A DNA stretch of 64,000 nt from Escherichia coli (lineage in GTDB: Bacteria; Pseudomonadota; Gammaproteobacteria; Enterobacterales; Enterobacteriaceae): the NCBI RefSeq assembly GCF_003334765.1, contig NZ_QOWT01000003.1; one strand, 5' to 3'. The translations under genes were made by a program, and so were the position numbers. Shown piece by piece: positions 20,647-40,612 of this stretch (the stretch's first letter is position 1; every line of letters begins with the position of its first letter). The notes beneath the pieces were generated by a model. It saw only the letters and a list, made by a program, of their open reading frames with translations. It had not been told where the DNA came from and did no database searches.

Positions 20647-22041
20647 TTAATCGTGAGCGCCGATTTCGCGCAGTTTACGACCTTTCATCAGATTACGTTC
20701 AATATGTTCCAGCGAAACGTGTTTGGTTTCCGGTACCAGCCACAATGTCAGCAGGATAAACAGTACGTTCAGAGCAGCATACACCCAGAAGGTGTTGGCG
20801 TTACCCAGCGTGTTGAGCATGGTCAGGAACGTTGCGCCAACGATCATGTTGGCAATCCAGTTGGTGGCAGTGGAGCAGGTGATGCCAAAATCGCGGCCTT
20901 TCAGCGGCTGAATTTCGGAGCACAGTACCCAAATCAGCGGACCGGCACTCATGGCAAAACCGACAATAAACATCAGCAGCATGGCGATGGCGAAATACTG
21001 CGCCGACGGAGAGTGGATACCGATATGCATCATTGTACCGAGTACGCCCATACCAGCAGCCATCACCAGGAAGCCCAGCGTTAGCGTTGGTTTACGTCCC
21101 CAGCGGTCAACAAGGCCGATTGCGATAAAGGTGGCAAGTACGTTGGTCAGGCCGACAATCACTGTCCCCCACATTTGCTCGGTGGTGTTGGTATAACCCG
21201 CCAGTTCGAAGATTTTCGGCGCGTAATACATGATGACGTTCATCCCGGTGAATTGCTGCATTACCTGCAATAGTACGCCAAGGAACACCGCGCGGCGGAA
21301 GTTGCTATTCTCTTTAAACAGCGCCCAGCCACTCTGTTTAACCTGCAAACTTTCACGGATTTCATCCAGTTCGCGTTTCGCTTCCGCGCTGGTGTCACGC
21401 AGGCGTAGCAGCACGCGTTCGGCATCAACAAAACGGCGTTTGGCGGCAAACCAACGTGGGCTGTCTGGCAGGAAGAAGACACCAATCAGCAGCAAAATTG
21501 CCGGGATGATAATCACACCCAGCATCCAGCGCCATGCACCGGTGTAGCTGAAGGCGGTATCAGAAAGATAAGCGCCGAGGATCCCGATAGTGATCATCAA
21601 CTGATACATCGAGATCATACTGCCGCGAATTTTTTCCGGCGCAATTTCAGAGAGGTACAGCGGTGCGGTATAAGAGGCCACACCCACTGCCAGCCCCAGC
21701 AAAACGCGGGAAAGAATCAGTACTTCAACGTTTGGCGCAGCAGCAGAGAACAGTGAACCGGCAACAAACAAGATTGCGCCGATCATCAGGCTCTTTTTGC
21801 GCCCGAGTTTAAAGGAGAGCCAGCCGCTGCCCACCGCACCGACTGCCGCACCGAACATCATGGAGCTTACGACCCATTCTTGCGTGTGCGAAGTAATCTG
21901 GAATTCATCTGCAATAAACGGCAGTGCGCCAGCAATTACACCGATATCCAGGCCAAAGAGTAATCCCGCCAGAGCGGCAAGGAAGCAGACGAAAAACGTC
22001 ATTGCCTTGTTTGACCGCCCCTGTTTTTTAGCGTCAGGCAT
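20647..22041 (-). CDS. galP: galactose:H+ symporter GalP (464 aa), MFS sugar porter
   Basis: [42 protein letters not shown]... recognised. Confidence 0.96.
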
Positions 22042-22104
22042 GATGCCCTCCAATATGGTTATTTTTTATTGTGAATTAAGATAGGTGAGTACGACGTAAA
22101 AAGA

Positions 22105-22139
22105 TGTGAAGCAAATCACATCAGTGTAATCGCTTACAC
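22105..22139 (-). promoter_or_regulatory. galP control region: perfect CRP palindrome TGTGA-AGCAAA-TCACA (22105-22120) and GalR/GalS-type operator GTGTAATCGCTTACAC (22124-22139)
   Basis: motifs read directly; galP is known to be regulated by CRP, GalR and GalS. Confidence 0.65.
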
Positions 22140-22426
22140 TAACATTTATCTTAGTTATGATTTAAGTGCATGAAAATAATTGAGTTATATCATCATAGAT
22201 TAAACGCTGTTATCTGCAATTAAGACTTTACTGAAAAGAAATGTAACAACTGTGAAAACCGAATAATAATATGAAAATATTACAAATCTTTGTCTGGTGT
22301 GGTTGGTGTAATCGGTTTCAGTAGCGATGATAATTTGCGGTAAAACGTGTTCAGGAAGAATGATGTTATTGTGCGGGCAGCTTTTTGCCGGATGCCGCGT
22401 GAACGCCTATCCACCGCGGTGAGGTA

Positions 22427-22454
22427 AAAGAAAAAGGCCAGCGCGAGGCTGGCC
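22427..22454 (-). terminator. metK rho-independent terminator
   Basis: GGCCAGCGCGAGGCTGGCC hairpin with T-run on the minus strand (AAAGAAAAA on plus), 23 nt after metK stop. Confidence 0.75.
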
Positions 22455-22476
22455 TTTGAAAGCAGGTGAAGAAAGA

Positions 22477-23631
22477 TTACTTCAGACCGGCAGCATCGCG
22501 CAGCAGCTGCGCTTTGTCGGTTTTTTCCCACGGGAAATGTTCGCGACCAAAGTGACCGTATGCTGCGGTTTCTTTGTAGATCGGGTGCAGCAGATCCAGC
22601 ATCTGAATCAGACCGTATGGACGCAGGTCAAAGAACTCACGTACCAGCAGAGTCAGTTGTTCAGAAGGCACTTTCTCGGTACCGAAAGTTTCCACCATGA
22701 TAGAGGTCGGTTCAGCCACGCCGATTGCGTAGGAAACCTGAATTTCACAACGATCGGCCAGGCCAGCAGCAACGATGTTTTTCGCGACATAACGTGCTGC
22801 GTACGCTGCGGAACGGTCCACTTTTGATGGATCTTTACCAGAGAATGCACCACCACCGTGACGTGCCATGCCGCCGTAGGTATCAACGATAATTTTACGA
22901 CCAGTCAGACCGCAGTCACCCATCGGGCCACCGATAACAAAACGACCGGTCGGGTTGATGAAGAATTTGGTGGCAGAAGTCAGCCATTCAGCCGGCAGAA
23001 TCGGCTTGATGATCTCTTCCATTACCGCTTCTTGCAGCGATTTCTGGTCGATTTCTTCAGAGTGCTGAGTGGAAAGCACGACAGCATCGATACCAACGAT
23101 TTTGCCGTCGTCATACTGGAAAGTCACCTGGCTTTTCGCGTCCGGGCGCAGCCACGGCAGAGTGCCGTTTTTACGCACTTCAGCCTGACGCTGTACCAGA
23201 CGGTGTGCATAGGTGATAGGCGCTGGCATCAGCACGTCGGTTTCATTGGTTGCGTAGCCAAACATCAGACCCTGGTCACCCGCGCCCTGTTCCAGCGGAT
23301 CGGCACGGTCAACGCCCTGGTTGATGTCAGGAGACTGTTTGCCGATAGCGCTCAGAACCGCACAGGAGTTAGCGTCAAAGCCCATGTCGGAATGTACATA
23401 GCCAATTTCGCGAACGGTGTTACGGGTGATCTCTTCGATGTCTACCCAGGCGCTGGTGGTGATTTCGCCGCCAACTAAAACCATGCCGGTTTTTACGTAG
23501 GTTTCGCAAGCAACGCGTGCTTTCGGATCCTGTTCGAGGATCGCGTCTAAAACGGCATCAGAGATTTGGTCAGCAATTTTGTCAGGATGCCCTTCAGAGA
23601 CGGACTCGGACGTAAAAAGGTGTTTTGCCAT
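22477..23631 (-). CDS. metK: S-adenosylmethionine synthetase (384 aa)
   Basis: [51 protein letters not shown]... recognised. Confidence 0.98.
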
Positions 23632-39448: not shown

Positions 39449-40612
39449 ATGTCTGTAATTAAGATGACCGATCTGGATCTTGCTGGGAAACGTGTATTTA
39501 TCCGTGCGGATCTGAACGTACCAGTAAAAGACGGGAAAGTAACCAGCGATGCGCGTATCCGTGCTTCTCTGCCGACCATCGAACTGGCCCTGAAACAAGG
39601 CGCAAAAGTGATGGTAACTTCCCACCTGGGTCGTCCTACCGAAGGCGAGTACAACGAAGAATTCTCTCTGCTGCCGGTTGTTAACTACCTGAAAGACAAA
39701 CTGTCTAACCCGGTTCGTCTGGTTAAAGATTACCTCGACGGCGTTGACGTTGCTGAAGGTGAACTGGTTGTTCTGGAAAACGTTCGCTTCAACAAAGGCG
39801 AGAAGAAAGACGACGAAACCCTGTCCAAAAAATACGCTGCACTGTGTGACGTGTTCGTAATGGACGCATTCGGTACTGCTCACCGCGCGCAGGCTTCTAC
39901 TCACGGTATCGGTAAATTCGCTGACGTTGCGTGCGCAGGCCCGCTGCTGGCAGCTGAACTGGACGCGCTGGGTAAAGCACTGAAAGAACCTGCTCGCCCG
40001 ATGGTGGCTATCGTTGGTGGTTCTAAAGTATCTACCAAACTGACCGTTCTGGATTCCCTGTCTAAAATCGCTGACCAGCTGATTGTTGGCGGTGGTATCG
40101 CTAACACCTTTATCGCGGCACAAGGCCACGATGTGGGTAAATCCCTGTACGAAGCTGACCTGGTTGACGAAGCAAAACGTCTGCTGACCACCTGCAACAT
40201 CCCGGTTCCGTCTGATGTTCGTGTAGCAACTGAGTTCTCTGAAACTGCACCGGCTACCCTGAAATCTGTTAACGATGTGAAAGCTGACGAGCAGATCCTG
40301 GATATCGGTGATGCTTCCGCTCAGGAACTGGCTGAAATCCTGAAGAATGCGAAAACCATTCTGTGGAACGGTCCGGTTGGCGTGTTCGAATTCCCGAACT
40401 TCCGCAAAGGTACTGAAATCGTGGCTAACGCTATCGCAGACAGCGAAGCGTTCTCCATCGCTGGCGGCGGCGACACTCTGGCAGCAATCGACCTGTTCGG
40501 CATTGCTGACAAAATCTCCTACATCTCCACTGGCGGCGGCGCATTCCTCGAATTCGTGGAAGGTAAAGTACTGCCTGCAGTAGCGATGCTCGAAGAGCGC
40601 GCTAAGAAGTAA
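39449..40612 (+). CDS. pgk: phosphoglycerate kinase (387 aa)
   Basis: [45 protein letters not shown]... recognised. Confidence 0.98.

Follow-up and report, generated by a model that had tools for sequence, protein, structure and literature searches.

The spacer between metK and galP in this Escherichia coli genome carries the galP control region, in which a perfect site for the cAMP receptor protein (CRP) stands directly downstream, in the direction of galP transcription, of a consensus operator for GalR/GalS. The identity of the galP sites is near certain. The CRP site, two GalR/GalS operators and a NagC operator had all been mapped before, and there is nothing new in the two sites themselves. 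We favour, with a probability of roughly 0.75, the explanation that this is the known galP region, where activation by CRP would be cancelled by GalR or GalS, with a DNA loop and NagC reinforcing the repression. The regulation of galP in E. coli K-12 has reportedly been treated by Weickert and Adhya in 1993, Semsey et al. in 2007 and El Qaidi et al. in 2009. The sequence-only reading had recognised a galP promoter with CRP and GalR sites, and this identification stands, although it overlooked the distal operator, the NagC operator and the prior publication of the sites.

The window, i.e., the whole 64-kb stretch of DNA that was analysed, matches E. coli metK-galP with 100% identity over 701 bp, where metK and galP are annotated. 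The galP coding sequence (galactose:H+ symporter) occupies 20647-22041 on the minus strand, with its ATG at 22041, a start identical to that of K-12 b2943. Its Shine-Dalgarno sequence, GGAGGG (22046-22051, minus strand), was assigned by sequence reading and is nearly invariant among orthologues. metK also lies on the minus strand, where its stop codon ends at 22477, and the galP control region reaches upstream as far as the intrinsic terminator of metK at 22433-22457 (minus strand; a 10-bp stem with six G-C pairs, then a T run). The left boundary had earlier been set at 22054, which is the end of a TTG-extended open reading frame; with the galP start codon at 22041, as in K-12, the true metK-galP spacer is 22042-22476.

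The spacer measures 435 bp here versus 423 bp in K-12. From the distal operator (OE) through the ATG, the window is identical to K-12 save for one SNP, and K-12 results therefore transfer directly. The two GalR/GalS operators, the CRP core and the NagC operator are letter-for-letter as published; the locus is the same as in K-12, and the differences from K-12 are confined to the far-upstream spacer. Just downstream of the metK terminator, within 22380-22430, 13 bp have been inserted (22414-22426), 1 bp is missing and there are several SNPs; a REP-like sequence, GCCGGATGCCGCGTGAACGCCTATCC (22387-22412), lies amid these changes. Due to these far-upstream changes near the REP-like sequence, no more than 377 of the 5426 E. 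coli genomes reach 99% identity over the whole spacer. The promoter core hardly varies: an 80-bp core occurs in every one of the 5426 complete E. coli genomes, and in 4910 its sequence is unchanged.

The CRP site was assessed as a 16-bp core, TGTGA-N6-TCACA, inside the 22-bp consensus AAATGTGATCTAGATCACATTT. The core TGTGAAGCAAATCACA at 22105-22120 (TGTGATTTGCTTCACA in the galP sense; centre 22112.5) has perfect arms and is the sole perfect match on both strands of the window, where 0.06 would be expected; at least one perfect core was found in 5 of 100 shuffles of the window. Its T-rich 3' flank, CACATCTTTTT, is kept across genera. In vivo binding has been demonstrated by others: a CRP ChIP-seq peak at galP in ETEC H10407 covers TGTGATTTGCTTCACA, identical to the site in the window (PMC4287617). 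The perfect CRP palindrome claimed from the letters at 22105-22120 is thus confirmed, with published binding to match. A terminator-like match on the minus strand at 22103-22122 consists of this palindrome and the conserved T tract, and was not accepted as a terminator: the inferred transcription start is downstream of it, and metK has its own strong terminator.

The proximal GalR/GalS operator, OI(galP), is GTGTAATCGCTTACAC at 22124-22139 (GTGTAAGCGATTACAC in the galP sense; centre 22131.5). It has no mismatches to the GalR/GalS consensus GTGKAANCGNTTMCAC, and its dyad is symmetric in seven of eight pairs. GalR operators are described as a 16-bp hyphenated dyad, GTGNAANC.GNTTNCAC, with critical positions 3, 5, 9 and 15 intact (PMC5110547); OI has G3, A5, G9 and A15 in both orientations. 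In K-12, OI(galP) is located at 3088186-3088201 and has the top in silico score in the genome (25.1), and its occupancy by GalR is well documented by the genome's highest ChIP-chip score (115.4), while galP is one of just three promoters up-regulated in a galR deletion (PMC5110547). The distal operator, OE(galP), is CTGAAACCGATTACAC in the galP sense, at 22306-22321 (centre 22313.5), with two mismatches to the consensus and a position 182 bp from OI; its K-12 coordinates are 3088004-3088019 (PMC5110547), and it is conserved in the cross-genus footprint. With the galP ATG at K-12 3088284, the K-12 coordinates of OI and OE map exactly to 22124-22139 and 22306-22321. The near-palindromic Gal repressor-type operator proposed at 22124-22139 is therefore OI(galP) (PMC5110547), and comparison with the mapped operators placed the published sites on the proposed coordinates, with none displaced elsewhere. 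Three sites with at most two mismatches to the GalR/GalS consensus occur in the window, against 0.69 expected. One of these, with two mismatches, is GTGGTATCGCTAACAC at 40092-40107, elsewhere in the window, where about 0.7 matches would be expected by chance.

Exactly 3 bp (22121-22123) separate the two 16-bp cores, in agreement with the earlier statement that the operator follows within 4 bp, and the centres are 19 bp apart (22131.5 - 22112.5). When extended to 22 bp, the CRP site reaches right up to the operator. The order of the sites given earlier is right in coordinates; as galP is on the minus strand, the order in transcription is operator, CRP, -10. The putative -10 hexamer is TATCTT (22078-22083, minus strand), 21 nt past the CRP core, just as TATGGT is at galE P1. 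A consensus promoter scan gave no -35 match at the galP promoter, as expected for a class II promoter. The scan missed the galP promoter and returned two weak matches on the opposite strand, which were dismissed since they are no more numerous than shuffled sequence would give and since the match at 22243-22270 has a -10 that is not conserved. By analogy with galE P1, galP most likely has a class II promoter with CRP centred at -41.5 in place of a -35 element. By this geometry, transcription would start at 22070-22072 (minus strand; about 22071 for a CRP site at -41.5), leaving a leader of about 30 nt. From the same geometry and analogy, we infer positions of -60.5 for OI and -242.5 for OE.

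The closest relative of this layout is galETKM P1 of K-12, where the operator GTGTAAACGATTCCAC, a TAA gap, the CRP core TTTATTCCATGTCACA, 21 nt and the -10 TATGGT correspond to GTGTAAGCGATTACAC, TGA, TGTGATTTGCTTCACA, 21 nt and TATCTT at galP. The order and all spacings (16-bp operator, 3 bp, 16-bp core, 21 nt, -10) are equal, including the 19 bp from centre to centre. The same repressors act on both promoters, and each has a second operator, which at galP would serve a loop. At galE, the operator OE is at -60.5 and CRP at -41.5 (PMC4693257). However, galE differs in having a second, overlapping promoter, P2, which is stimulated by GalR bound to OE and repressed by CRP, and in the poor left arm (TTTAT) of its CRP site versus the perfect core at galP. 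Furthermore, galE P1/P2 are basally active, whereas galP is reported to be inactive without CRP. The second galE operator lies inside the gene (+53.5, 113 bp away), so that the loop encloses the promoter, whereas the galP operators are both upstream and 182 bp apart. Two further genes of the regulon have an operator directly upstream of a good CRP core. At galS, the centres are 19 bp apart (CTGTAACCGTTTCCAT + TGC + TGTGACTCGATTCACG), and at mglB they are 18 bp apart, 1 bp off the galP distance, although both operators are weaker than OI(galP), with at least two mismatches. Semsey et al. (2007) reportedly hold that gal-regulon promoters with this similar organisation differ in the input functions that they compute.

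Conservation was assessed on galP orthologue loci chosen by protein only; 80 were fetched, covering about 30 genera of Enterobacteriaceae, and 79 had enough upstream sequence. The operator and the CRP core are exactly 19 bp apart in 74 of the 79. Information content per position was computed over these 74 loci, anchored on the operator and without alignment. The mean is 1.85 bits per position for OI, 0.45 for the 3-bp linker, 1.80 for the CRP arms, 0.50 for the CRP N6 and 1.58 for the -10 hexamer. There are 18 distinct linkers and 47 distinct N6 sequences among the 74 loci, and TAnnnT occurs exactly 21 nt past the CRP core in 73 of them. The pattern has the form of a clean phylogenetic footprint of a presumptive class II CRP promoter with an abutting operator. 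Since the 19-bp spacing is rigid while the linker and N6 are free to vary, it supports a defined joint geometry over a simple overlap of sites.

Five syntenic or near-syntenic loci have remodelled galP promoters. Two of these (Enterobacter sp. ENT03, kpr-6) have, about 60-100 bp upstream of galP, a consensus -35 TTGACA followed directly by the operator GTGTAAGCGATTACAT, with no CRP core. Judged from this arrangement, these two seem to have given up CRP-dependent activation with anti-activation in favour of a CRP-independent promoter that the repressor would shut by occlusion. The other three, from Silvania and Leclercia, lack a CRP core as well; their spacer of about 212 bp holds one GalR-type operator, located about 130 bp before the ATG.

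A NagC operator, CTTAATTCACAATAAAAAATAAC, is located at 22058-22080 (minus strand), where it overlaps the -10 and +1. NagC sites are 23-bp quasi-palindromes with TT at -6/-5, AA at +5/+6 and C or G at +/-11 (PMC4288165). All of these features are present in CTTAATTCACAATAAAAAATAAC, which matches S-W4-TT-N9-AA-W4-S perfectly and was first found here independently of the published site. The same 23-mer is the NagC operator upstream of galP, cttaattcacaataaaaaataac, described as experimentally corroborated (PMC3098098). Repression by NagC has been measured by others, with a single site leading to about 5-fold repression (PMC4288165). The 23-mer is well kept only in Escherichia, whereas Salmonella, Citrobacter, Klebsiella and others no longer have the TT that a site requires at -6/-5; the NagC layer at galP may thus be specific to the Escherichia lineage. 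Another NagC-like 23-mer, TTATTTTCATGCACTTAAATCAT, is present at 22157-22179, between OI and a conserved block described below, with TT and AA in place and T at +/-11. Its TT/AA positions are kept in about 60-80% of orthologues. It was set aside as the galP NagC site since FITBAR gives the sequence at 22058-22080 (PMC3098098).

The mechanism of galP control is known in outline from the work of others, who describe PgalP as inactive without cAMP-CRP and GalR as inhibiting this activation (PMC4073488). With cAMP and without galactose, both CRP and GalR can bind the DNA, and the promoter thus computes AND logic on cAMP and galactose (PMC4073488). The sequence-only reading had suggested direct competition or cooperativity between the two proteins. 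This holds only loosely: an interaction does exist and has been characterised, but the literature describes inhibition of activation and neither competition nor cooperativity.

In the direction of transcription, the region reads OE, OI, CRP 3 bp after OI, the putative -10 21 nt after the core, NagC over the presumed start, the ribosome-binding site and the ATG. cAMP-CRP would act, most likely as a class II activator at -41.5, on a promoter that is silent without it. When galactose is lacking, GalR or GalS bound at OI, at about -60.5, would cancel the activation with CRP still able to bind, so that transcription would need both cAMP and galactose. The repressor would sit at the docking place of the C-terminal domain of the RNA polymerase alpha subunit (alpha-CTD), just upstream of CRP, and would contact or block this domain so that no open complex forms. 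At galETKM P1, the same 19-bp spacing acts by GalR contact with the alpha-CTD, and CRP is not displaced (PMC4693257). By this analogy, we rate the alpha-CTD step at galP at somewhat better than even odds. A GalR-GalR loop to OE, 182 bp away, together with NagC over +1, would reinforce the repression.

The strongest competitor to anti-activation at OI, which we rate as possible and clearly the lesser of the two, places the repression in the architecture of the region. Here, a repressosome-like OE-OI loop, which NagC at +1 and perhaps a factor at a conserved block in mid-loop would help to close, would trap the promoter, and the closeness of OI to CRP would be secondary. OE and OI are 181-185 bp apart in 66 of 70 loci, even though spacer length ranges from 338 to 554 bp and most of the sequence between them is not conserved; two outliers, of 172 and 174 bp, are shorter by about one helical turn. 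This constraint fits a phased GalR-GalR loop, which galP may form; against phasing, 182 bp corresponds to 17.3 turns at 10.5 bp per turn, a non-integral number. A conserved block near the loop midpoint also favours an architectural role, as do the HU protein at the loop apex of the galETKM repressosome (PMC5110547) and a nucleoprotein complex including NagC at galP, of which citing papers speak (PMC5401889). However, the OI-CRP spacing of 19 bp is kept more strictly than the OE-OI distance, and both operators are upstream, so that, unlike at galETKM, the loop would not have the promoter inside it.

Anti-activation with CRP in place must also be weighed against steric competition, in which GalR or GalS on OI and CRP would exclude each other and repression would amount to displacement of the activator. 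With 16-bp cores only 3 bp apart and a CRP site that touches the operator when extended to 22 bp, partial steric interference is possible on this spacing. CRP bends DNA sharply and could distort a neighbouring operator. Displacement is nevertheless unlikely, given that both proteins can bind with cAMP and no galactose (PMC4073488) and that the identical spacing at galE P1 works by contact between GalR and the alpha-CTD (PMC4693257). In addition, zero single-base drift in 74 loci suggests joint geometry, whereas a mere clash would tolerate drift.

Slightly less likely still is cooperative binding, in which CRP and GalR or GalS would stabilise each other in the manner of CytR and CRP, and cAMP would strengthen repression when galactose is absent. 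A protein-protein contact is compatible with the fixed spacing and the shared helix face, and CytR-CRP provides a precedent within the same LacI/GalR family. At deoP2 and related promoters, a repressor of this family beside CRP likewise cancels activation without necessarily removing CRP. However, CytR sits between two CRP dimers, depends on the contact and uses weak operators, whereas galP has a single CRP site and an operator of consensus strength. OI, as a perfect consensus with the genome's top ChIP-chip occupancy, should need no help. No statement of cooperativity was found in the galP literature consulted, and no evidence was found for a GalR-CRP contact at galP. Finally, the idea that two motif-like sequences stand side by side by chance and do nothing jointly, although short palindromes such as the perfect CRP core do arise in shuffled sequence, is excluded for practical purposes by the conserved module (74 of 79 loci, with the bases between free to vary), its recurrence at galE, galS and mglB, and the published in vivo occupancy by both proteins (PMC5110547, PMC4287617).

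A further conserved element lies between OE and OI. This 28-bp block, TGTTACAT-N4-TTTCAG-N3-AGTCTTAA (22221-22248; the cross-genus consensus ends AGTCTGAA), is as conserved as the operators and unique in the window. It adjoins the OE-OI midpoint (22222.5), and in 58 loci its start lies at a fixed 107-110 bp upstream of that of OI. Its TTTCRG-N3-AnTCT part persists even in remodelled promoters, and the three loci of Silvania and Leclercia retain it as TTTCGG-N3-ACTCT. The opposite strand has two GalR-like left half-sites as a direct repeat, 10 bp apart, and the block contains the palindrome TTCAG-N6-CTGAA. Several identities were tried and rejected as poor fits, including a sigma-70 or sigma-E promoter (wrong spacer lengths), a NagC site (the required TT is not conserved), an RNA hairpin (no compensatory changes) and a full GalR operator. 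An Rfam scan of the region returned nothing near threshold, and an ORF scan gave no open reading frame at 22221-22248. The block is absent from the GalR, CRP and NagC sites in the galP literature consulted; it may already be described by El Qaidi et al. (2009). We tentatively put forward, as a rather doubtful proposal, that it is an undescribed protein-binding element of galP control. Candidates are an architectural site at the loop apex, a site for an extra regulator reading the direct repeats spaced 10 bp apart, or non-canonical GalR half-sites that would help to close the OE-OI loop.

The galP promoter is already known to be bound in vivo and is used as a textbook-style AND gate, and the present finding carries little weight as a discovery. 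The only possible value for follow-up is the conserved block between the two galP operators. The value of the check is that it confirms the sequence reading and quantifies, across about 30 enterobacterial genera, the rigidity of the 19-bp spacing between operator and CRP site and of the distance of about 182 bp between the two operators.
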